Source of the DNA: Polaromonas sp.
GTDB taxonomy: Bacteria; Pseudomonadota; Gammaproteobacteria; Burkholderiales; Burkholderiaceae_C
Direction of reading: 5' to 3'
Assembly: GCA_025352405.1 (NCBI GenBank)
Contig: JANXTM010000187.1
Span: 632 to 64,631 of the forward strand
Length of the DNA: 64,000 bases
Under the pieces are notes generated by a model. That model worked only from the letters and a program-made list of their open reading frames with translations. It was not told the origin of the DNA and made no database searches. Shown one piece after another: positions 17,510 to 29,554 of this stretch (the stretch's first letter is position 1; every line of letters starts with the position of its first letter). The position numbers and the translations under genes were made by a program.

Positions 17510-18223
17510 ATGGGCGCGCAGTGGAAAGCAAAAGGCAAGGATCTGGCCGCGAATGCCAAGGGCAGGGTATTCGGAAAATTAGCCAAAGACATCATGATCG
17601 CGGCGCGCAGCGGGGCCGACCCGGCGTCAAACGCGCGCCTGCGTCTGGTGGTAGAGCAGGCACGCAAGGTCTCGATGCCCAAAGAAACCCTGGATCGCGC
17701 CATCAAAAAAGGGGCTGGCCTGACCGGCGAAGCCGTGCATTTTGAGCACGTGATTTACGAAGGTTTTGCGCCGCACCGCGTCCCGCTCATGGTCGAGTGC
17801 CTGACCGACAACCTGAACCGCGCCGCCTCTGAAATACGCGTGCTGTTTCGAAAGGGGCAGTTGGGCACCTCTGGTTCGGTGGCCTGGGATTTTGACCATG
17901 TGGGCATGATCGAAGCCGAGCCTGCGGCCCCGGGTACAGATGCGGAACTGGCCGCCATTGAAGCAGGTGCACAGGACTTTGAGCCTGGCGAGGAAGACGG
18001 TACAACGATGTTCCTGACCGACCCTGCCGACCTGGACCTGGTCAGCCGCGCGCTGCCCACCCACGGCTTCAGCGTGTTGTCTGCCAAGCTGGGCTACAAG
18101 GCCAAAAATCCGGTCGATCCTGCGTCGCTAAGCGCCAAAGATCTCGAAGAAGTGGAAGCCTTCCTGGCGGCTATCGACGCCAACGACGACGTGCAGAATA
18201 TTTTCGCGGGCCTGGGGGGTTAA
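17510..18223 (+). CDS. YebC/PmpR family protein (second-paralog type, MGAQWK N-terminus)
   Basis: [31 protein letters not shown] motifs. Confidence 0.92.
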
Positions 18224-18235
18224 GGAGTCACAAGG

Positions 18236-18976
18236 TTATTCATTCTGGCACCATCGACCTGAATCCGGGCATACGCTGGCTCTTGTGCCGTCCCGCCAGA
18301 CCTGCTCATCATCCAGTAATAACGCGGTTGTGGGGTCGATGTCAAAGGCTATCCCGAGTACATGCCCAACATGGGCATTCTCGATAGGAAGCTCCCAGGT
18401 CAGGAATACCTGGGAGCAATCCCGGTCGGGTGGAAAGTCAGCCACGTTAAAGCCGCTGCTGCTCCTGTCAATGACGGCATGCGGCTGTCCGGTATCGAAC
18501 ATCACAGCCGTACCCGTGGTCAAGGGGATTCGATGGCCGGTAGATGGGAAGTGCAAGTCCAAACCCCGGTCTTCACTTAAAAAAAGATTGCAAAAAGACA
18601 TACCGCCATACTGCGCGCCATCGTGGTGGTATTTGGCGCCACGGCAGGCCATCAGGGCTACATCGCAGGCGGTCAGCGAAGCCGGCAGGCCCAGCGTACC
18701 CGTCCAGTCAGACATGGCCTGCACGCATTGCCGGTACTCTGGCCAGCGCATGCGCGCACGTGCCAAAGGCAAAGCCTCGACCTCACCAGGTGCCAGTCTC
18801 AGGCGCTGCACTATGTCCCGCTCCCAATCAGCCGACAGCCTTGCTGGGGGTGCAGGAACATTGACCGTGCCCACCAGCACAACGCTGCTTACACTTCGGC
18901 TGCGAATGGCCTCGCCACTCCAGAAATAGGAGACAAGGGGGTCTTGCACAGGATGCGCTGGCGGGGGGATGATCAT
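18236..18976 (-). CDS. Hypothetical protein with HxD...H metal triad (2OG-Fe(II) oxygenase/cupin-like)
   Basis: YHHDG ... FCNLFL ... GTAVMFDTGQPHAV pattern; 246-aa ORF that fills the gap. Confidence 0.6.
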   Translation of the reverse strand: MIIPPPAHPVQDPLVSYFWSGEAIRSRSVSSVVLVGTVNVPAPPARLSADWERDIVQRLRLAPGEVEALPLARARMRWPEYRQCVQAMSDWTGTLGLPASLTACDVALMACRGAKYHHDGAQYGGMSFCNLFLSEDRGLDLHFPSTGHRIPLTTGTAVMFDTGQPHAVIDRSSSGFNVADFPPDRDCSQVFLTWELPIENAHVGHVLGIAFDIDPTTALLLDDEQVWRDGTRASVCPDSGRWCQNE

Positions 18977-19053: not shown

Positions 19054-19899
19054 TTAAATCCAGGTCTCAATCACACGGCTGTCGTCGCGCAAGCCCAGAC
19101 CGGCGTCTGCCGCCCGGCAAAAACGCTCGTGCGCAATAGCCAGCAGAGGAAGTTGGGCGCTACAGCCAGCGCCTGCCGCCGCTACCAACCCGCTGTCTTT
19201 CACGAAGATGTTGATGGCGCTGGTGACTTCGACATCGCTGCCTGCAAGCATGCGGGGACCGCGGTCAGTAAGCATCCAGGAACCGGCTGCGCCTTTTTCT
19301 ACAAGGTCCAAAACAACAGACGGATTGAGGCCAAGCAAGCGCGCCAAATTGAGGGCTTCGGCCGCTGCAGCGATATGCACGGCGCAAAGGTGTTGGTTCA
19401 CTACTTTGATACTTTGTCCATCGCCGAGTCGTTCGCCCGTTGTTTTGACGTTACCCATGGTCTGCAGCAACGGTGTAGCCAAAGCCACATCCGCCGCAGC
19501 GCCCGCTGCAAAAATCACCAATGCGCCTGTCTTCGCACGGGCTACGCCACCTGTGACAGGCGCGTCTACGACACGAGCGCCAGCCCGCTGCAAGGCTTCC
19601 CCTTGCGCCCGTATGGACTGCGGACCAACTGTGGACATGATGATCCACAGTTGGCCCGCAGCGGCCCTGCCTACCTGGCTGACGAGCCCGGCCAATTGAT
19701 CTGGCGTGGCGACCATAACCACCACCACTTCTGCACGTGGCGCGGCAGCAAAATCATTGCAAGCTTCCAGTCCCTTCGACTTTGCATTGGCAATGATCGC
19801 GTCCGACACATCGACACCCGTGACTGCGTGATGAGCCGCTTGAATCCGCAAAGCCATCGGCAACCCAATAGCCCCAATGCCGATAAATGTAATGTTCAT
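19054..19899 (-). CDS. NAD(P)-dependent beta-hydroxyacid dehydrogenase, LtnD/YgbJ-like
   Basis: GIGAIG Rossmann motif, DAPVTGG, KVVNQ (catalytic Lys), SAINIFVKD. Confidence 0.85.
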   Translation of the reverse strand: MNITFIGIGAIGLPMALRIQAAHHAVTGVDVSDAIIANAKSKGLEACNDFAAAPRAEVVVVMVATPDQLAGLVSQVGRAAAGQLWIIMSTVGPQSIRAQGEALQRAGARVVDAPVTGGVARAKTGALVIFAAGAAADVALATPLLQTMGNVKTTGERLGDGQSIKVVNQHLCAVHIAAAAEALNLARLLGLNPSVVLDLVEKGAAGSWMLTDRGPRMLAGSDVEVTSAINIFVKDSGLVAAAGAGCSAQLPLLAIAHERFCRAADAGLGLRDDSRVIETWI

Positions 19900-20088
19900 G
19901 ATTTTCTTTTATAAAAAAATTTGGACCGATGAAAGAGTGATTGACTGTGCGTATCCGGACCACAAAATAGGCAGCGAACCCTTCGGTTAATTTGGAGATG
20001 CGTCACCTTGTAAGTGCATCGGGTGGTTGGTTGAAATTGAATGCGTCACTACCGGTCAATTCAGTTGTTTTGCGTCGCCGCCACAGAC

Positions 20089-21093
20089 TCACACTGCGAC
20101 CCAGGTTTTAATTTTTTGAGCCATCATTTCTGTTGAAATGCCGTAGCGGTCGTGCAGCGTCGGCAGCGCACCCGCGTCGAGAAAAGCGTCTGGCAAGCCA
20201 ATCTGACGAAATGCTGTAGCGACGCCTGAACGCATCAACAAACCGGCTATAGCCTCACCCAAACCGCCGATTACCGAATGATTCTCTGCCACCACGACCA
20301 GTCTTCCCAGCCGCCGGACCTCGGCCAAGATGGTCGCTTCATCAAGCGGCTTGATCGTGGGGACGTGCAGCACTGCGACATCGATGCCATCGGCCTTCAG
20401 TTGCTCGGCAACTTCCAGCGCACGCATGGTCATGAAGCCACTGGCAATCACCAGAACCTCATTGCCGTCGCGTATCAGCTTGGCTTTGCCGAGCTCGAAC
20501 TTGTAGTTGTACTCGTCCAGCACCAGTGGCACGTTGCCGCGCGGCAGTCGCATGTAGACAGGGCCAACATGGTCAGCCATTTGCGGCACAGCTTGCTCAA
20601 TCTCGAGCGCGTCGCATGGGTCAATGATGGTCATGCCAGGAATGCAGCGCATCATGGCCAGGTCCTCCGTCGCCTGGTGACTCGGCCCATAGCCTGTCGT
20701 CAATCCAGGCAGCGCGCAACAGATCTTGACGTTCAGGTTCTCTTCAGCAATGACCTGGTGCACAAAGTCGTAGGCGCGGCGGGTACCAAACACGGCGTAG
20801 GTCGTTGCGAACGGAATAAAGCCTTCCTTGGCCATGCCACCGGCTGCCGCCATCAGCAGCTGCTCGGCCATACCCATCTGAAAGAAGCGCTCCGGGTATT
20901 CCTTGCCGAACAGGTGCAAGTCGGTGTATTTGGCAAGGTCAGCCGTCATGCCGACAATCTCCGGACGATTGCGCGCCAGCTCAACCAGGGCTTTGCCAAA
21001 CGGCGCCGCCGTGAAGCGCTGGCCCTCGCTGGCGATCGAGGCGATCATGGCTGAGGTGGTCAGCCGTGGTTTCTTTTCGGTAGTGGCGTTCAT
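20089..21093 (-). CDS. Split transketolase, C-terminal (pyrimidine-binding) subunit
   Basis: MGMAEQ, FGTRRAYD, GPSHQATED, PVYMRLPRG, HVPTIKPLD; TAATG coupling with the upstream gene. Confidence 0.92.
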   Translation of the reverse strand: MNATTEKKPRLTTSAMIASIASEGQRFTAAPFGKALVELARNRPEIVGMTADLAKYTDLHLFGKEYPERFFQMGMAEQLLMAAAGGMAKEGFIPFATTYAVFGTRRAYDFVHQVIAEENLNVKICCALPGLTTGYGPSHQATEDLAMMRCIPGMTIIDPCDALEIEQAVPQMADHVGPVYMRLPRGNVPLVLDEYNYKFELGKAKLIRDGNEVLVIASGFMTMRALEVAEQLKADGIDVAVLHVPTIKPLDEATILAEVRRLGRLVVVAENHSVIGGLGEAIAGLLMRSGVATAFRQIGLPDAFLDAGALPTLHDRYGISTEMMAQKIKTWVAV

Positions 21094-21932
21094 TAAACGA
21101 CTCCTTCGGTTTGCATGCTGTCGATATGGGCGATGGCTTGCTGCCATTCCGGCGGATCGACACGGATAAAGTGGTTCTTGTCGCGGGTTTCGAGGAACGG
21201 GACGCCCCGACCCATCAAAGTGTCAAAGAGGATTACCCGCGGCTTGTCTTCGGTCAACGCCCGTGCTGCATCGAAGGCAGCAATGACGGCTGGCAGGTCA
21301 TTGCCGTCGACGCGCTGTACATGCCAGCCGAACGCCGCCCATTTATCGGCCAGTGGCTCAAAGCCCATGATTTTCCCGGACGGGCCGTCGGCCTGCTGGT
21401 TGTTGATGTCAATCAGGCAGATCAGGTTAGCTAGCCGGTGGTGGGCGGCACCCATAGCGGCCTCCCAGGTCGAGCCTTCATCCAGCTCACCGTCGGACAT
21501 TGAGTTGTAAACAAAGGCCGAATTCTTCTTCAGCCGCAGACCCAGCGCGACCCCAACCGCGATAGACAAGCCTTGTCCCAACGACCCCCCCGACATTTCC
21601 ATGCCGGGCGTGTAGGTCGCCATTCCTGACATCGGCAAGCGGCTGTCGTCGCTGCCGTAGGTTTCGAGTTCTTCCTCCGGCAAGATCTTGGCTTCTATCA
21701 ACGCTGCGTACAAAGCGATTGCGTAGTGACCGTGCGACAGCAGGAAACGGTCGCGCCCCTCCCACTTGGGATCTTCGGGCCGGTAATTTAACGCATGCCG
21801 GTAAGCCACCGCCAGCACGTCAGCCCATCCGAGTGCCTGCCCAATGTAGCCCTGCCCTTGAACTTCCCCCATACGCAGGGCGTAGCGGCGAATGCGATAA
21901 GCGCTTTCTTGAAGCGTCGATAAATCAGACAT
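21093..21932 (-). CDS. Split transketolase, N-terminal (ThDP-binding) subunit
   Basis: RDRFLLSHGHYA, GGSLGQG, SDGELDEG...DINN ThDP motif; GGAG RBS before ATG 21932. Confidence 0.92.
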   Translation of the reverse strand: MSDLSTLQESAYRIRRYALRMGEVQGQGYIGQALGWADVLAVAYRHALNYRPEDPKWEGRDRFLLSHGHYAIALYAALIEAKILPEEELETYGSDDSRLPMSGMATYTPGMEMSGGSLGQGLSIAVGVALGLRLKKNSAFVYNSMSDGELDEGSTWEAAMGAAHHRLANLICLIDINNQQADGPSGKIMGFEPLADKWAAFGWHVQRVDGNDLPAVIAAFDAARALTEDKPRVILFDTLMGRGVPFLETRDKNHFIRVDPPEWQQAIAHIDSMQTEGVV

Positions 21933-22086
21933 ATATCTCCTTGGAAGATCGAATAAGGCAGGTAATAAGGCAGGTAACAGTGCAAGGCATCCTGAGAGGT
22001 GACGTGGCAATTCCACACATCGCATTGTCAAAGGGCTGCCCTGCAATTTCGGGTCGATTTAGCGCTCGGTGGATGGGGTGCATTTG

Positions 22087-23967
22087 TCAGAGGAACCCGA
22101 TGGATATCCATGGGACCGCGGCGACGATAACGGTTCCGATGAACAGCGCGATCATGTAGCCCACAATGGGCTTCATGCCCTCATTCGGGTGGATACGGCT
22201 GATGGCGCAGGCCGCGTAGTAGCCCACCCCAAATGGCGGCGCAAACAGGCCAATACCCATCGACAGAGTGACGACCATGGCGTAATGCACTTCATGAATC
22301 CCAACCTGGCGGGCAATCGGAAACAGGAGAGGGCCCAGCAGCACGATGGCAGGAATACCCTCCAGTACGGAGCCCAGAATGATGAAAGCCACGACCGACA
22401 CGGCCATGAAGGTGACTGCACCACCTGGCAACGCCTTCATCGCATCGGCCAGCGCGGTCGAGAAGCCGGACTGCGTCAGCGCCCAAGCCATGGCGGTGGC
22501 TGCACCGATGATGAACAAAATGGCACCTGAAAGTGACGCGGTACTAACCAGCATCGGATAGACCCGCTTCCAGTCAAATTGCCGGTACACGAGCAGTCCA
22601 GCAATCACGGCGTAAACGATGCCGATGGTGGACACCTCGGTCGCCGTGGCAACACCTTCGACCACCGCTGCGCGAATGACAACGGGAAGCGCTAGTGCCG
22701 GAATTGAGATCAGAAGCGACTTGCCGATCTCGCGGCCCGTGGCGCGTCTTACGCCCGTGAGGTCCTCACCCCGGTAGCGCCACCACACAAGCGCGGCCAG
22801 AGTGAGCCCCACCACAACGCCAGGCAACAAACCGCCGGTGAACAAAGCTGCAATCGACACGCCAGTGGCGGACCCAATCGTGATCAGTACAAGTGACGGT
22901 GGAATCGTCTCGGTCTGCGCACCAGTAGCGGACAGCAAAGCCACCAGATCGCCTGGCTTGGCACCTCGCTCGCGCATTTCCGGGAACAGTGCCGGTGCCA
23001 CCGCCGCCATATCGGCTGCTTTTGAGCCTGAGATGCCCGACACCAAGTACATCGCACCAATCAGCACATACGACAGTCCGCCGCGCACGTGCCCCAAGAG
23101 GTTCGCCAGGAAATTAACCATGGCGCGCGCAATGCCGGTCATTTCAATCAACAGGCCGAGCAAGACAAACAGGGGAACCGCGAGCAAGATGAGATGGCTC
23201 ATGCCTTCGTCCATCCGGCCGACGATGACCATTGTTGGCGTGCTGGTCGTCAGTGCAATGTAACCAAAGGTCGCGAGTCCGAACGAGAACGCAATGGGCA
23301 AACCCAGCAGCACCATGACGCCAACGCCGAGCACAAAAAAGACGAACAGGTTCCAGTTGCCAAGCGGCTTCAGTAGCGGGCCGACCAGCGCCATCGCCCC
23401 AACGACAAGGGCAACCAGGCCCACGGCCAAGACGACATCCTTCAGTCGCCCGATGCGAAAGATCTGGATGATGCCCACGAGCAACATCAGCCCAAGGCCG
23501 ATGGGAAGTGCGGCGGCACGCCAGGCGTTGGGTATACCCATCGCCGGTGTCGTGACAAACACTTCGTCTGCCGCAAACTCGTAGGCAGGGTGTACGACAA
23601 ACGCCAGGAAGGCAACGCCAGCTGCGATCGCAACCAGATCGAGCAAGGCCCGCTGCCTCGGTTCGAGATTGCCAACCATCGCCGTCATGCGCATATGCTC
23701 GCCGCGCTGGAAAGCAACGATCGACCCCAACATCGCCAGCCAAAGGAACAGGATCGACGCCAGCTCGTCAGACCATCCGAGGGGTTGGTGAAAGACGTAA
23801 CGGCTTATCACGCCCATCAGCAGTACAACGACCTCAGCCAGCACCAGCAGCGCGGCCGGTATTTCAACCAGCGTCGCAAGCGCCTTGTTCAGCGTCTCAA
23901 GCCAGGCGATCGGCTCGCGCCGGCCCGTCTGAACTGCATTTTCATGCTCATCGATAGGGAAATTCAT
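22087..23967 (-). CDS. dctM: TRAP transporter fused DctQ-DctM permease
   Basis: N-terminal 4-TM DctQ (WSDELAS, GEHMR) fused to DctM (AVPLF, SGSKAAD, IPPS, APPFG). Confidence 0.92.
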   Translation of the reverse strand: MNFPIDEHENAVQTGRREPIAWLETLNKALATLVEIPAALLVLAEVVVLLMGVISRYVFHQPLGWSDELASILFLWLAMLGSIVAFQRGEHMRMTAMVGNLEPRQRALLDLVAIAAGVAFLAFVVHPAYEFAADEVFVTTPAMGIPNAWRAAALPIGLGLMLLVGIIQIFRIGRLKDVVLAVGLVALVVGAMALVGPLLKPLGNWNLFVFFVLGVGVMVLLGLPIAFSFGLATFGYIALTTSTPTMVIVGRMDEGMSHLILLAVPLFVLLGLLIEMTGIARAMVNFLANLLGHVRGGLSYVLIGAMYLVSGISGSKAADMAAVAPALFPEMRERGAKPGDLVALLSATGAQTETIPPSLVLITIGSATGVSIAALFTGGLLPGVVVGLTLAALVWWRYRGEDLTGVRRATGREIGKSLLISIPALALPVVIRAAVVEGVATATEVSTIGIVYAVIAGLLVYRQFDWKRVYPMLVSTASLSGAILFIIGAATAMAWALTQSGFSTALADAMKALPGGAVTFMAVSVVAFIILGSVLEGIPAIVLLGPLLFPIARQVGIHEVHYAMVVTLSMGIGLFAPPFGVGYYAACAISRIHPNEGMKPIVGYMIALFIGTVIVAAVPWISIGFL

Positions 23968-24046
23968 AATTTATTTTCGCCAAAGAGCCACGTACAGCCG
24001 CCACAAGAGTCCGCGCGGCTGCTCACCATCACGTTCACTCAAAGGT

Positions 24047-24079
24047 TCACCTCGCGGACCGGCACGCAGAGCGAGGTGA
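24047..24079. terminator. Hairpin between dctP and dctQM (attenuator/stability element)
   Basis: TCACCTCGC-N15-GCGAGGTGA perfect 9-bp stem just after the dctP stop. Confidence 0.4.
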
Positions 24080-24087
24080 CTTTGCAG

Positions 24088-25098
24088 TTAGCCGAGCTTG
24101 CCGGAGACTTTTTCCAGAAGATCCCAGGGCATTGCGCCGTACTTGGTCTTCCACTCGCCATAAAAGCCTGTGCTTATCAACTTTTTGCGGAAATCTTCTT
24201 GCTGAACATCGACGAAATTGATGCCCTTGGCTTTGAGGTCTGCAACCAGGCTGGTATTGAGCCGGGCCACATCGGCGCGCTGATCGGTGGCAGACTTGTC
24301 AAGCTCTCGCTTGATAATCTGTTGGACGTCCGCAGGCAGCTTTTCAAATGCGCGTTTGTTTCCAAGCACCCAGTACCCATCCCAGACATGACCAGTAAGG
24401 CTACAGCTTTTTTGAACCTCATAGAGCCGGGCGGTTGCGATGATGGCCAGGGGGTTTTCCTGGCCCTCCACCACCTTCGTCTGCAAAGCTGTGTACACCT
24501 CATTAAAGTTGATGGTAGCCGGAGCCGCCTCAAGCGCCTTGAACATCGATGTCAGCGATGGCGCAGGCGGCACTCGCAGCTTGAAGCCCTTGAGGTCGGC
24601 TGCAGTTTTGATGTCGCGTGAAGACGACGTGATGTGGCGAAAACCGTTGTCCCAGATCTTGGAGACGGTAAAGATAGATGTTTTTGCGATTTCGGCACGG
24701 ATGTGGTTGCCCAGATCACCGTCCATCGCTTTCCACACGTCGTCGTAGTTCTTGAAGGCAAAACCAACGCTGGTGATGCCCGAGATCGGCACGAAGGTCG
24801 ACAAGATCAGCGAGGACAGGTTGAAAAAATCGACCGAACCATTGCGCACCTGCGACAACAGGTCTGTGTCGTTACCGAGTTGGTTGGCCGGAAAGAGCTT
24901 GATGTTGACCCGGCCTGAGCTGGCCTCACGGATGCGGTCGTGTGCTTCCTTGGCGCGCAGATTAACCGGATGCGTCGGGTCTTGTCCGGTGGCGTACTTG
25001 AGTTCAAACTCGGCGGCGTCGGCGCGGTGCGAGATGATCGAGAAAAGCGGCAGCGTTGCGGATTGCGCCAGCAAGGCCCGACGAGTCAATTTTGTCAT
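24088..25098 (-). CDS. dctP: TRAP solute-binding protein with Tat-type leader
   Basis: TRRALL leader, FPANQLG, NGFRH, LRVP, EVYTALQTKVVEGQENP. Confidence 0.93.
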   Translation of the reverse strand: MTKLTRRALLAQSATLPLFSIISHRADAAEFELKYATGQDPTHPVNLRAKEAHDRIREASSGRVNIKLFPANQLGNDTDLLSQVRNGSVDFFNLSSLILSTFVPISGITSVGFAFKNYDDVWKAMDGDLGNHIRAEIAKTSIFTVSKIWDNGFRHITSSSRDIKTAADLKGFKLRVPPAPSLTSMFKALEAAPATINFNEVYTALQTKVVEGQENPLAIIATARLYEVQKSCSLTGHVWDGYWVLGNKRAFEKLPADVQQIIKRELDKSATDQRADVARLNTSLVADLKAKGINFVDVQQEDFRKKLISTGFYGEWKTKYGAMPWDLLEKVSGKLG

Positions 25099-25268
25099 GA
25101 TGTGTTTGTCTCCGGTGGTTCGGCATGGTCAATTGGCCGTGATTTCGCGGTACTTGCCAATCTTTTCAGCGAGCCACCGGGCATGAGGCGCTTCTGTGCC
25201 CTGTGGCGCTTCGATTTCAAAAACTCGTAAAAGTAATGTAAAAGTGATGGAGAAGAATTCCCGCTTTG

Positions 25269-26018
25269 TCAGTGAATCAACATGCCGCCATTGACATCGA
25301 GCGTGATGCCGGTGCAGTACGCCGACAAATCGCTGCCAAGGAAAACGCAGGCACCCGCGATGTCATTGGCCCGGCCCAGACGCCCCAACGGAATCGTTTC
25401 GGCGATCTCGGTTTTTTTCTCCTCGGTCAATTTGCCCTTGATGATGTCGGTGCTGATCAGGCCTGGGGCAATGCAGTTAACGCGGATTCCGGCAGCGCCC
25501 AGTTCACGCGCCATCGCACGGGCCAGCCCAAGCACGCCGGCTTTGGCTGCTGAGTAGTGCGGCCCCCCAACGATTCCGCCGCCGCGCTGCGCAGAAACAG
25601 ACGAGATACAAATGATGGAGCCGCTTTGCTGACGCTCCATCACTGGAATCACCGCCTGCGAGCACAGGAGCGTGCCACGAAGACTCACGTCCAATACAGC
25701 GTCATAGTCCGCAGCCGAGATGTCCACCGTCTTGCGTGGCTGCGTGATGCCCGCATTGTTTACCAAAATATCAATGCGGCCAAATTTGGCCAGCACTTGT
25801 TCCACTGCGCGGTCCACGGCGGTCTTGTCGGTGACATTTCCGACAACACCAAAATGCGCATCGCCCAGCTGCGCTGCGGCTTCAACCGGCCTGGCGTCTG
25901 CCAAATCCAGAATGGCAACGCGGGCACCGTGTCTGGCCATTTGCAGCGCAGTAGCAAAGCCTAGCCCGTTGGGACCAGCACCGCCGGTAATGAGAACCAC
26001 CTTGTCTTCAAGCAACAT
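25269..26018 (-). CDS. Short-chain dehydrogenase/reductase
   Basis: ITGGAG..GLG, NNAG, YSAAK catalytic motif, DVNGG. Confidence 0.93.
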   Translation of the reverse strand: MLLEDKVVLITGGAGPNGLGFATALQMARHGARVAILDLADARPVEAAAQLGDAHFGVVGNVTDKTAVDRAVEQVLAKFGRIDILVNNAGITQPRKTVDISAADYDAVLDVSLRGTLLCSQAVIPVMERQQSGSIICISSVSAQRGGGIVGGPHYSAAKAGVLGLARAMARELGAAGIRVNCIAPGLISTDIIKGKLTEEKKTEIAETIPLGRLGRANDIAGACVFLGSDLSAYCTGITLDVNGGMLIH

Positions 26019-26138
26019 GTTTTGTCTCTGGTTAATTTGAGTAAAGTGATTGTCAGAATTCTCATTGTTGAATGCAAACGATATATTTTCACTTTATAGT
26101 GACGTATTGTCATTATTGGGTTTTCCCTGATTTACATC

Positions 26139-27095
26139 ATGCGTTCATCTTTTCCCCCTTTTGCATGCCTCGCAGCCTTTGAAGCCGTAGCACGCCGAAG
26201 AAATTTTTCTCGCGCGGCAAAAGAACTGCATCTCACCCCCTCGGCCGTCAGCCACCAGGTGGCCAAACTTGAACAGTTCTTGAATATCCGCCTGTTTGAT
26301 CGCACGGCACATAACGTCGACCTCACCGTTGCGGGCGACGATTACCTCAAGCGGGTAAGCGGCGCCATGGCTGCAATCAGTGCAGCCACTGACAATGCGA
26401 GAAAAGGTGTACGGAATTCGCTGCATGTACACGCGACGCCGAGCTTTGCGGCGCTTTGGCTCATGCCACGCCTGAAGGACTTCGCGAAAATTCATCCCGA
26501 TATTTCGCTTTCCATGTCGTCATCGGTGGTGCATTCAGACTTCGCTGCTGGGCATACGGACATTGACATCCGTTATGGCGCCCCGCATTGGCCGCAGCTG
26601 GCGGTGCGGCCAATCTTTGAAGAGCAGGTCATGCCGCTGGCCAGCCCGGCCTTCATCAAACGCCATCGGATTGCATCTGCCGAAGACCTGATGCACGTTC
26701 CGCTCATTCAGTCCACCGTCGGCGTGGTTCAATGGCCGGACTGGTTTGCTGCCCAGGACATCGCGCACACGCCGGGGAACTATGCCTATCGTTTTGATCG
26801 CGCATTCATGGCGCTGGATGCCGCCGTTCAGGGCTTGGGTGTAACGTTTGAAAGTACTTCCATTGCTGCGCTGCACCTGAACAAGCGCAGGCTCACACCC
26901 GTATTTGCGTCAGGCGAGTACCTGCCAGTAAAGGCGCACTTTCTGGTGTACCCCGAGCGCCACGCACAACGACCTGAGGTCATGCGCTTTGTTGACTGGC
27001 TTCTGGAGCGGGCAATTGCTACCCCGGACCTGCAGATGCAACCGGCCGGAATGCTGTCTTCGCCAGCTGAGTCGCCTAAGGCAAACAAAGCGTGA
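26139..27095 (+). CDS. LysR-family regulator (GcvA-like), divergent from the SDR-TRAP-transketolase operon
   Basis: NFSRAAKEL.LTPSAVSHQ HTH; WLMPRL; DIDIRYG. Confidence 0.92.
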   Translation: MRSSFPPFACLAAFEAVARRRNFSRAAKELHLTPSAVSHQVAKLEQFLNIRLFDRTAHNVDLTVAGDDYLKRVSGAMAAISAATDNARKGVRNSLHVHATPSFAALWLMPRLKDFAKIHPDISLSMSSSVVHSDFAAGHTDIDIRYGAPHWPQLAVRPIFEEQVMPLASPAFIKRHRIASAEDLMHVPLIQSTVGVVQWPDWFAAQDIAHTPGNYAYRFDRAFMALDAAVQGLGVTFESTSIAALHLNKRRLTPVFASGEYLPVKAHFLVYPERHAQRPEVMRFVDWLLERAIATPDLQMQPAGMLSSPAESPKANKA

Positions 27096-28576: not shown

Positions 28577-29050
28577 CTACCCGGCCATAACCGGTTTCAA
28601 GTACTTGGAAGGGTGCTCGGGTTCCCCCTCTTGAGTCAGCCTTGCCCTTTCGAAGCAATCAACGTCAGCGGGCAAGGCGACGCCCGACTGTGCTGACTGG
28701 GTCCATATGTTCGAAGTTATGTCCACCGCCTTGGGGTTGTCGTAGCAGCCTCGCGAGACTGCTCGAAAATCAGGCCAGCGCTCATAGGTAAGGCCGATAG
28801 TGGTTCCACAAACTGGGCAAAACTCAACGTACACCTTCTTGCCGCTCACATCTGAGGTGTGCTCGTACTTGCGCACCTCGCCAGCATTGAACTCGACTGC
28901 CTGAACTGGGAACACGGAGTTGGCATAGAACGCGGAACCGGTCATACGCTGACAGAAAGTGCAGTGGCAAACAAATGTTCGAACTGGCGCCTGATTGACG
29001 TGGAATCTGACAGCTCCGCAGAGACAGCCACCTTCAAGAACAAGCGACAT
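28577..29050 (-). CDS. GFA/CENP-V family Zn protein
   Basis: GGCLCGAVR, CHCTFCQR, FCPVCGT; starts at MSLVLEGG (29050), not at the ORF-track start 29434. Confidence 0.9.
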   Translation of the reverse strand: MSLVLEGGCLCGAVRFHVNQAPVRTFVCHCTFCQRMTGSAFYANSVFPVQAVEFNAGEVRKYEHTSDVSGKKVYVEFCPVCGTTIGLTYERWPDFRAVSRGCYDNPKAVDITSNIWTQSAQSGVALPADVDCFERARLTQEGEPEHPSKYLKPVMAG

Positions 29051-29147
29051 GGTGAAACTCCGGGTTAGACCCTGATGGTGTGATGCGAGGCATGTCCTCA
29101 AATGAAACTGTACCACCCCTGTGTCTGCTTTTGGTCGCAACTCGCCG

Positions 29148-29554
29148 GTATTGCCACTGACCGAAAATTGACGGCTGGGAGTGCGGCGCATAAAGCTGCG
29201 CGACCAACTCTCTGACGGAGAGACACGTAGGCGAACTGGACTGGCCAGACATACGGTCAAGGAGTGGCTCAAGGCGCCAGGCGACATTAAACCGGAGTAC
29301 CAACGCAGTAAGGCTGATGGCAAGCTCACGCCGTTTATGGCCGTGTGCCTGAGCAAGCGTTGCGCACGGACGCGCACAGAGCCGAACAGGCAGGCTGCGA
29401 CTGCAGGGCTCTGTTCTCGCGGATCCAGGCCCAAGAATGCGGGGATGGCTAGAGCGCCGTTGCAGACTTCATTCGCGCATGACGAATGGAAAGCATCGAG
29501 GACCCCAGCAAAGTGGCGTTCGGTGCTCTCGCGCTATTCCTGGAGGCATATTGA
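29148..29554 (+). mobile_element. istA: Decayed IS21-family istA 5' remnant with degenerate left end
   Basis: VRRIKLRDQLS..E..RRTGLARHTVKEWLKAP..KPEY...GKLTPF, then a +1 frameshift to EQALRTDAHR..RALFSRIQAQ..G*SAVADFIRA*; stops at 29450 and 29480; TTGCCACTGA/CCGAAAATTGAC end-like motif. Confidence 0.8.

Follow-up and report, generated by a model that had tools for sequence, protein, structure and literature searches.

A conserved operon joining an SDR dehydrogenase to a remodelled split transketolase, a candidate kinase-free route for small hydroxy-acids

How can an operon that encodes an importer, dehydrogenases and a two-gene transketolase, and no kinase, serve the breakdown of a sugar-like compound? 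This question is raised by a locus in Polaromonas sp. (GenBank assembly GCA_025352405.1, contig JANXTM010000187.1, positions 632 to 64,631), where a stretch of 64,000 nucleotides, here called the window, carries a transketolase split into the subunits TktN and TktC within a row of genes divergent from a LysR-family regulator. A first-pass annotation had described seven genes at this place, and each of them is found again with the same coordinates, strand and order. It had also listed no kinase, isomerase, aldolase or decarboxylase, and Pfam and NCBIfam annotation of the window places none of these in or adjoining the operon. The best explanation of the operon is a LysR-controlled catabolic unit for a small, non-phosphorylated hydroxy-acid. 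Its parts are as follows.

26139-27095, plus strand: LysR-family regulator of a GcvA-like subgroup (HTH_1 and LysR_substrate domains; 260.6 bits to the GcvA model NF008352, cut-off 288)
26019-26138, no strand: divergent control region, the 120 bp between the LysR and SDR genes, its regulatory role predicted from position alone
25269-26018, minus strand: classical SDR dehydrogenase of 249 aa, first gene of the operon (adh_short_C2, 224.8 bits)
24088-25098, minus strand: DctP, the solute-binding protein (SBP) of a TRAP importer, type a (PF03480, 245.6 bits; TIGR00787, 234 bits, cut-off 175)
22087-23967, minus strand: fused DctQ-DctM of 626 aa (TIGR00786, 289.8 bits, cut-off 268)
21093-21932, minus strand: TktN, the subunit of 279 aa that binds the diphosphate of thiamine diphosphate (ThDP) (Transketolase_N, 138.7 bits)
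20089-21093, minus strand: TktC, the pyrimidine-binding and C-terminal subunit of 334 aa (Transket_pyr and Transketolase_C)
19054-19899, minus strand: HIBADH-family (beta-hydroxyacid) dehydrogenase, LtnD-like (NAD_binding_2 and NAD_binding_11)

The starts of the two transketolase genes were corrected from the longest open reading frames (ORFs) on the basis of homologue lengths and sequence, so that TktN begins with MSDLSTLQ and TktC with MNATTEKK. The ATG of TktC overlaps the stop of TktN as TAATG, an arrangement through which TktC is predicted to be translationally coupled to TktN. Within the fused membrane protein, DctQ corresponds to residues 46-171 (100 bits) and DctM to residues 215-621. 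The HIBADH gene lies 189 bp after TktC.

The first step towards an answer lies in the active site of the transketolase. TktN and TktC were aligned to E. coli TktA and to the split transketolase of Carboxydothermus, with E. coli numbering used throughout. TktN keeps H66, G114, D155, N185 and H261, and TktC keeps E411, H473 and R520; the set responsible for ThDP and metal binding and for cofactor activation (GDG...N with D155 and N185, E411, H66) is conserved in full. The substrate site is altered. The changes H26Y and H100S in TktN are seen whether it is aligned to E. coli TktA or to the 6YAK N chain, and this Y/S pair is present in 67 of 69 family members. In TktC, R358 is replaced by Ala, S385 by Tyr or Thr and H461 by Leu, while a deletion of one residue takes away D469; these altered motifs are conserved in the 80 related loci introduced below. 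In canonical transketolases H26, H100, R358, S385, H461 and D469 provide contacts to the donor C1-OH and C3-OH, to the phosphate and to the acceptor C2-OH, with H26 and H100 contacting the C3-OH and C1-OH of the normal ketose donor. From the phosphate-binding set R358, S385, H461 and R520, TktC retains R520 alone, and from the donor histidines H261 and H473 remain while H26 and H100 are replaced, a departure from the canonical transketolase pattern. Among the residues discussed here, H66, H100, G114 and H473 have been named as donor contacts (PMC7661550).

Since three of the four phosphate-binding residues are lost together with D469, TktN/TktC does not appear to be a standard sugar-phosphate enzyme, and the residues predict that the usual mode of sugar-phosphate binding is closed to it. 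The earlier idea of an unphosphorylated substrate is thereby supported from the side of the enzyme (R358A, H461L, S385Y/T and no D469). The family models are consistent with this picture. The transketolase equivalog NF004559 is reached by neither subunit (TktC 248.6 bits, TktN 220 bits, cut-off 488), and the best PDB matches are the 6YAK N chain for TktN (E 2e-63) and 6YAJ for TktC (E 9e-70), the latter followed by DXS structures (E about 1e-40) before human transketolase appears. A canonical full-length transketolase is encoded in the same genome on another contig (509.9 bits), and TktN/TktC is therefore an extra one. By sequence, the two subunits appear to constitute a distinct, SDR-linked transketolase branch that is remodelled at its substrate site.

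Is the surrounding gene set as constant as the altered residues? A pattern search with TktC, restricted to one genome per species, revealed a close relative encoded in at least 556 bacterial species. For comparison of loci, the best 80 of these at least 556 species-level matches were taken (TktC 74-92% identical to the window protein), their ORFs were called and clustered, and the clusters were named by Pfam and NCBIfam; 46 of the loci have full flanks. Most belong to Burkholderiales and Rhodocyclales, with further carriers in Pseudomonas, Citrobacter sedlakii, Azospirillum, Skermanella and a metagenome-assembled genome of Acetobacteraceae. Among the carriers are common genera of soil, rhizosphere and freshwater (Variovorax, Limnohabitans, Herbaspirillum, Acidovorax, Polaromonas, Thauera, Azospirillum), besides some Pseudomonas. 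The constant core across the 80 loci consists of the LysR regulator, the SDR, TktN/TktC and an importer for organic anions. With full flanks, the SDR is present in 43 of 46 loci and a divergent or adjacent LysR gene in 42, and every such locus (46/46) has at least one dehydrogenase gene. TktN/TktC is found in all 46 because the loci were collected by a TktC search. Besides the parts named in this text, no gene family recurs in more than 4 of the 80 loci. Because the same gene set recurs in 80 loci, the arrangement of the operon is not due to chance.

A kinase carried consistently by homologous clusters had been named in the first-pass annotation as the outcome that would speak against its proposal. 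This was looked for among the 80 loci, where no sugar kinase, aldolase or isomerase is recurrent. The sole kinase is a glycerate 2-kinase (DUF4147 and MOFRL), encoded directly after TktC in three of the 80 loci (L020, L021 and L024) and in 1 of the 46 with full flanks; it would act after cleavage. Further accessory genes in related loci encode HIBADH enzymes resembling tartronate semialdehyde reductase (TSR) or LtnD and a 2-hydroxyacid dehydrogenase, for which the NCBIfam matches are generic 2-hydroxyacid dehydrogenase models, with glyoxylate reductase weaker. Together with a second full-length transketolase, present in 17 of the 46 full-flank loci and discussed below, these accessory genes point to C2/C3 oxo-acid products.

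What is imported can be read from the exchange of importers. The window system comprises DctP, DctQ and DctM, with TIGR00787 and TIGR00786 above their cut-offs, as in a DctP-type TRAP transporter. This type a occurs in 9 of the 46 full-flank loci, while 28 carry a type b with separate DctQ and DctM and a DctP that is 30-38% identical; the remaining 9 are without TRAP genes, and the annotated ones among the TRAP-less loci have an in-operon MFS carrier of the D-galactonate (ACS) or metabolite/H+ (MHS) subfamily. Thus, TRAP type a, TRAP type b, ACS-type MFS and MHS-type MFS replace one another around the same enzymes. The organic-acid cargo put forward in the first-pass annotation is borne out, since these four unrelated types, all carriers of organic anions, are interchanged: the imported cargo is an organic anion.

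The identity of this anion is less directly approached through DctP. The window protein is 58% identical over 308 residues to PDB 4OAN (RPB_2686 of R. palustris HaA2, a target of the Enzyme Function Initiative), its only close solved relative, and the AlphaFold model (pLDDT 89.5) superimposes on 4OAN with Z 44.1 and a root-mean-square deviation of 1.6 over 308 residues, within a range of Z 37-44 for TRAP SBP structures. The bound density of 4OAN was reportedly modelled as (S)-2-acetolactate, itself an alpha-hydroxy-beta-keto acid, and this ligand is treated here as a hint only. A review does list 2-acetolactate among the new TRAP ligands of the study concerned (PMC5812351), and it confirms that alone. 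Homologues of the type-a SBP (48-63% identity) are encoded in 7 of 301 sampled Alphaproteobacteria, beside a RuBisCO-like protein and a DUF1537 kinase, an AMP-ligase or a DAO oxidoreductase, or as the SBP alone. Since these alphaproteobacterial proteins are unlinked to transketolase, the 4OAN ligand is not simply transferable, and its transfer to the window system was rejected as firm evidence. DctPAm of Advenella, which binds sugar acids (7BBR, E 2.5e-58), is among the nearer PDB relatives of type-b DctP, whose best match is 4P47, an entry without usable ligand information.

Two paralogous TRAP modules in the same genome place the SBP family in a wider context. In one of them (L097, G000:C325 546-8111), an SDR, DctQM and a DctP 49% identical to that of the window are accompanied by a RuBisCO-like protein, an acid-sugar kinase of the DUF1537 type and a divergent LysR gene. 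Kinase-dependent routes for tetronate- and apionate-type acid sugars are known to have this layout. Because a DUF1537 kinase and a RuBisCO-like protein accompany this SDR-TRAP set, the SBP family also serves acid sugars of the tetronate or apionate type. A third type-a TRAP system (L096, G000:C324 21530-27332; DctP 55% identical) has an AMP-dependent ligase, a thiolase-like protein and an IclR regulator nearby and looks like a coenzyme A-dependent route for another acid.

Which enzyme performs the entry oxidation? The SDR, whose orthologues are 61-88% identical across the 43 full-flank loci that have it, is proposed for this step. It reaches no NCBIfam equivalog; among family models it matches FabG- and BudC-kind reductases best, and its closest solved structure is 7KRK (E 2e-92), deposited as a 3-oxoacyl-ACP reductase. 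The HIBADH-family enzyme, by comparison, is an accessory part, encoded in 16 of the 46 full-flank loci. Close orthologues (63-79%) follow TktC in L018, L086, L092 and L002, and other members of the family occupy that place in about 19 loci, from LtnD-like (316.6 bits in L016) to TSR-like (255 bits in L031). Because such a gene stands directly after TktC in the full-flank loci that have no SDR (L069, L086 and L092), where it replaces the SDR, the HIBADH enzyme looks like an alternative or second entry dehydrogenase. The earlier naming of an LtnD-like dehydrogenase therefore holds in part: the gene is present and is a near relative of LtnD, its best NCBIfam match being L-threonate dehydrogenase NF043037, but at 194.8 bits it stays below the cut-off of 350 and it does not belong to the core. 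The TSR model TIGR01505 gives 134.9 bits. The companions of LtnD in the Otn pathways, an AP_endonuc_2 isomerase, a DUF1537 kinase and a class II aldolase-type decarboxylase, are neither encoded in the window cluster nor recurrent in the 80 loci.

The transketolase branch itself extends beyond these loci. Ordinary split transketolases keep GH.G, GHP, TR, THAG and GEDG, and R358, H461 and D469 are kept together in just 32 of the 91 TktC relatives of full length. Altered substrate sites are common among split transketolases, and enzymes of this sort are largely unstudied. Monophyly of all TktC proteins without R358, H461 and D469 was considered and rejected, since such sequences are scattered over the tree. 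Conversely, representatives bearing the deletion group together in a single clade of 27 tips, 25 of which have it (FastTree support 0.97). Altered residues are also common to remoter groups (38-53% identical) that are SDR-adjacent and never lie beside a kinase: in six informative sister-group contexts, the SDR is adjacent in all six and a kinase in none. Here, the neighbours (L012, L013, L015 and L117) comprise the SDR plus varied genes, namely a sugar ABC system together with lactonase and enolase-superfamily dehydratase genes, three SDRs beside an NMT1-type ABC system, or TRAP, MFS, a zinc-dependent alcohol dehydrogenase (Zn-ADH) and an AP_endonuc_2 isomerase-like gene. The pair of SDR and transketolase may be a cleavage module that is reused in several routes for non-phosphorylated sugar acids.

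The same genome also holds an ordinary split transketolase (L098, G000:C141 47367-49039) with the donor motifs GHIG and AGHP and the full set of motifs listed above. It adjoins an epimerase/glycosyltransferase fusion and a WS/DGAT acyltransferase, and these neighbours suggest that its role is probably biosynthetic.

Beside the operon, a second full-length transketolase is encoded in 23 of the 80 loci, either directly after TktC or divergently beyond LysR (for example L025:2215-4242 on the minus strand and L049:15639-17648 on the plus strand). All 23 copies carry R358I (Val in one locus), S385P and D469N and retain all donor histidines together with H461 and R520. With 672-712 bits they fall below the housekeeping copy, which is encoded elsewhere in the genome and reaches 910-938 bits, and the full-length transketolase beside the operon thus appears from its sequence to be a dedicated second copy.

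Read together, these parts suggest a pathway in which a small alpha,beta-dihydroxy acid is imported, oxidised to a hydroxy-keto acid and subjected to ThDP-dependent cleavage and transfer without phosphorylation, a proposal given about an even chance. The TRAP system DctP-DctQM would import the acid, a task for which other species would use a different TRAP system or an anion-type MFS carrier. The SDR would then oxidise a secondary alcohol to give an alpha-hydroxy-keto acid; where present, the LtnD-like HIBADH enzyme would catalyse the same reaction, probably on another stereoisomer or a close analogue. TktN/TktC with ThDP would attack the carbonyl and break the bond to the neighbouring carbinol carbon, releasing a small oxo-acid or aldehyde, for which glyoxylate, tartronate semialdehyde and pyruvate are candidates. 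Finally, the ThDP-bound fragment would be passed to an acceptor aldehyde, and the carbon would enter central metabolism without an ATP-dependent kinase. We infer the order of the steps, the position oxidised, the bond cleaved, the acceptor and the substrate from what is observed, namely which genes are present and how they are conserved, an anionic cargo, a lack of kinases and an altered substrate site. As substrates, tetronate-type C4 acids (L-threonate, D-erythronate) or their 4-deoxy or 2-C-methyl relatives are considered first and pentonates second, and none of these candidates reaches even odds.

Several points weigh against this proposal. Its chemistry is drawn from gene context and active-site residues. 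The replacement of H26 and H100 appears to argue against a plain hydroxymethyl-ketone donor such as 3-oxo-tetronate, and a methyl-ketone, tertiary-carbinol or 2-oxo-acid donor seems equally possible. For this reason, the view of the first-pass annotation that the keto-acid serves as a hydroxypyruvate-like two-carbon donor may be wrong in detail. Furthermore, LtnD proper yields a 2-oxo acid and an OtnI-type isomerase is not encoded in the cluster, and 3-oxo acids decarboxylate spontaneously, which would compete with enzymatic cleavage (PMC13753588). Among the SDR matches listed (the best 60 of 81 PDB sequences, E <= 1e-35), the structure of Ltn3D does not appear. Between the window SDR and its counterpart in the kinase-dependent paralogous cluster L097, identity is only 33%, and the two were not equated at that value. 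The seven Alphaproteobacteria with type-a SBP homologues (7/301 genomes) have no transketolase genes beside them, which also weakens the link to 4OAN.

A broader form of the proposal is held more tentatively and is thought somewhat improbable. TktN/TktC would found a 'carboxy-ketol' transketolase family acting on unphosphorylated alpha-hydroxy-keto acids, and in combination with one dehydrogenase and one importer it would admit tetronate-type, deoxy or 2-C-methyl-branched acid sugars to central metabolism by way of two enzymes and without ATP, aided in about a quarter of species by the second remodelled full-length transketolase (R358I, S385P, D469N).

Could the ThDP enzyme perform a different reaction? 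In a decarboxylating carboligase similar to DXS, the 2-hydroxyl would be oxidised to a 2-oxo acid, which TktN/TktC would decarboxylate before joining the fragment to an aldehyde, without ketol cleavage. The rank of DXS structures directly behind 6YAJ in the TktC search is in line with this idea, as are L086 and L092, where the sole dehydrogenase is LtnD-like and an isomerase is lacking. DXS retains the equivalents of H26 and D469, but both are lost in TktN/TktC, and the DXS model TIGR00204 gives 220.7 bits, far under 465.95. The product would moreover be a larger unphosphorylated ketose in need of further enzymes, none of which recurs in the clusters. In favour of the reaction, H100 is likewise replaced in DXS (PMC7661550), and LtnD, the nearest named relative of the HIBADH enzyme, is a 2-dehydrogenase (PMC13753588). 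On balance, a DXS-like reaction is regarded as unlikely, although it deserves to be kept in mind.

Alternatively, an acyloin might be cleaved as by an acetoin-cleaving E1 component, with the fragment freed as an aldehyde or passed to a lipoyl carrier or another oxidant encoded elsewhere, again without ketol transfer. An alpha/beta heterotetrameric architecture as in E1, a weak E1_dh match in TktN (23.5 bits) and the disappearance of the acceptor-side residues D469, R358 and H461 would suit such a lyase. If the ligand of 4OAN is indeed (S)-2-acetolactate, it would fit as well, being an acyloin of the kind in question. However, E2, E3 and lipoyl-domain genes are not recurrent in the 80 loci, the sequences are much nearer to transketolase and DXS than to E1 (Transketolase_N 138.7 bits against E1_dh 23.5 bits), R520 is retained, and the dedicated second transketolase in 23 loci better suits ketol shuffling, which makes this a distinctly improbable account.

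Very little speaks for an ordinary pentose-phosphate transketolase paralogue acting on a compound to which a kinase from elsewhere in the genome adds the phosphate: TktN and TktC have transketolase Pfam domains, R520 is retained and a canonical kinase could sit anywhere in the genome, but six conserved substrate contacts are unlike those of all canonical transketolases compared, both subunits miss the NCBIfam transketolase equivalogs (248.6 and 220 against 488 bits), the genome already holds a canonical full-length transketolase (509.9 bits) and no kinase recurs in the 80 loci. Equally far-fetched is a biosynthetic or detoxifying module that makes or removes, for example, a reactive acyloin or dicarbonyl, for although the family matches of the SDR are FabG- and BudC-kind reductases and a glyoxalase-family gene follows the cluster in L002, a high-affinity importer with a divergent LysR gene is the usual inducible catabolic layout, four kinds of importer are swapped around constant enzymes, and glycerate-pathway genes lie downstream in some loci.

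Thus, the kinase-free oxidation and cleavage of a small hydroxy-acid is the reading carried forward here, and the borders of the unit that would perform it are the next point. In the gap between the LysR and SDR genes, promoter-like hexamers occur on both strands (26113-26085, minus; 26059-26087, plus), and promoter and terminator scans gave counts that are not above those of shuffled sequence. The flanks contain the following genes.

18236-18976, minus strand: ORF of 246 aa, 77 bp past the HIBADH gene, with a coding-like codon-position GC pattern
17510-18223, plus strand: YebC/PmpR-family regulator, flanking gene on the HIBADH side
28577-29434, minus strand: ORF with a GFA (glutathione-dependent formaldehyde-activating) domain, in the flank beyond LysR

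The 246-aa ORF has no Pfam or NCBIfam match, and its Atlas feature matches (0.99) are clusters automatically named as 2OG-Fe(II) or prolyl 4-hydroxylase domain proteins. The possibility that it supplies a missing step of the pathway was weighed and dismissed: because it is absent from all 80 related loci, it is not part of the system. The YebC/PmpR gene and the ORF with the GFA domain show no link to the operon in other genomes.

If the proposal is true, small acid sugars would be broken down in a third and simpler way, besides kinase plus decarboxylase and kinase plus RuBisCO-like enzyme, and a large unstudied branch of split transketolases would gain a natural function. It would also provide natural enzymes that accept non-phosphorylated substrates, which transketolase engineers have sought by mutating R358, H461, D469 and R520. 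The operon is found in at least 556 species, among them common genera of soil, rhizosphere and freshwater, and neither it nor its substrate is described in the literature searched, which included the catabolic gap-filling paper of Price et al. As the proteins can be obtained from cultivable strains, the case is directly testable.

How does the system compare with those already known? At the level of structure, the split transketolase of Carboxydothermus hydrogenoformans (ChTK; 6YAK/6YAJ; PMC7661550) has the same two-gene architecture, with PP in the N chain and Pyr and TKC in the C chain, shares the ThDP- and metal-binding residues and is the best-matching solved relative for TktN and TktC alike. 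In ChTK, the motifs SGHPG and GHP retain their His, and TR, THAG and GEDG are intact, whereas the window enzyme has Y, S, A, L and a deletion at these places. It has been assayed solely with hydroxypyruvate and simple aldehydes (PMC7661550). DXS belongs to the same superfamily, is the second-closest solved group for TktC and likewise lacks a His at the H100 position (PMC7661550), but it is a single-chain biosynthetic enzyme, while the window enzyme has two chains and no equivalents of H26 and D469. Among binding proteins, RPB_2686 is alike in sequence and fold (58% identity, Z 44.1) and differs in that its alphaproteobacterial homologues have no transketolase linkage.

At the level of pathways, the L-threonate and D-erythronate routes (LtnD/DenD-OtnI-OtnK-OtnC, and Ltn3D) resemble the window system in an LtnD-like and/or SDR start and in a small acid-sugar cargo. 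They differ in that the window cluster has a ThDP enzyme in place of kinase and decarboxylase, and no OtnI, OtnK or OtnC. The 3-dehydrogenation of L-threonate by an SDR is now known from the Ltn3D bypass (PMC12994016). In papers of 2026, the described C4 acid-sugar routes proceed through phosphorylation and then OtnK/OtnC or RuBisCO-like enzymes (PMC12994016, PMC13753588), and every one of them uses a kinase after oxidation (PMC13753588).

Split transketolases are likewise found in the catabolism of other sugars, and two of these routes can be compared by their descriptions. D-apiose is reportedly broken down through an apulose 4-phosphate transketolase, with a kinase acting beforehand on a neutral sugar taken up by an ABC system, as Carter et al. 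are said to have described in 2018. Here too, the split transketolase is the step that cleaves the C-C bond, in a dedicated catabolic cluster with an importer and dehydrogenases; unlike the window system, which has anion importers and no kinase, the apiose route places a ketose kinase first and imports a neutral sugar by ABC transport. The D-apiose transketolase route is also mentioned in PMC13753588.

The breakdown of sulfoquinovose by sulfo-transketolase (SqwGH) is treated in PMC11659671. Found in anaerobic Firmicutes, the SqwGH pathway is kinase-free, employs a split transketolase on C6/C4 ketose sulfonate and needs isomerases. As a kinase-free split transketolase acting on an anionic, non-phosphorylated sugar derivative, it is the nearest precedent in logic. 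It differs from the window system in its sulfonate and its isomerases, where the Polaromonas operon and its relatives have an SDR entry, carboxylate-type importers and no isomerase.

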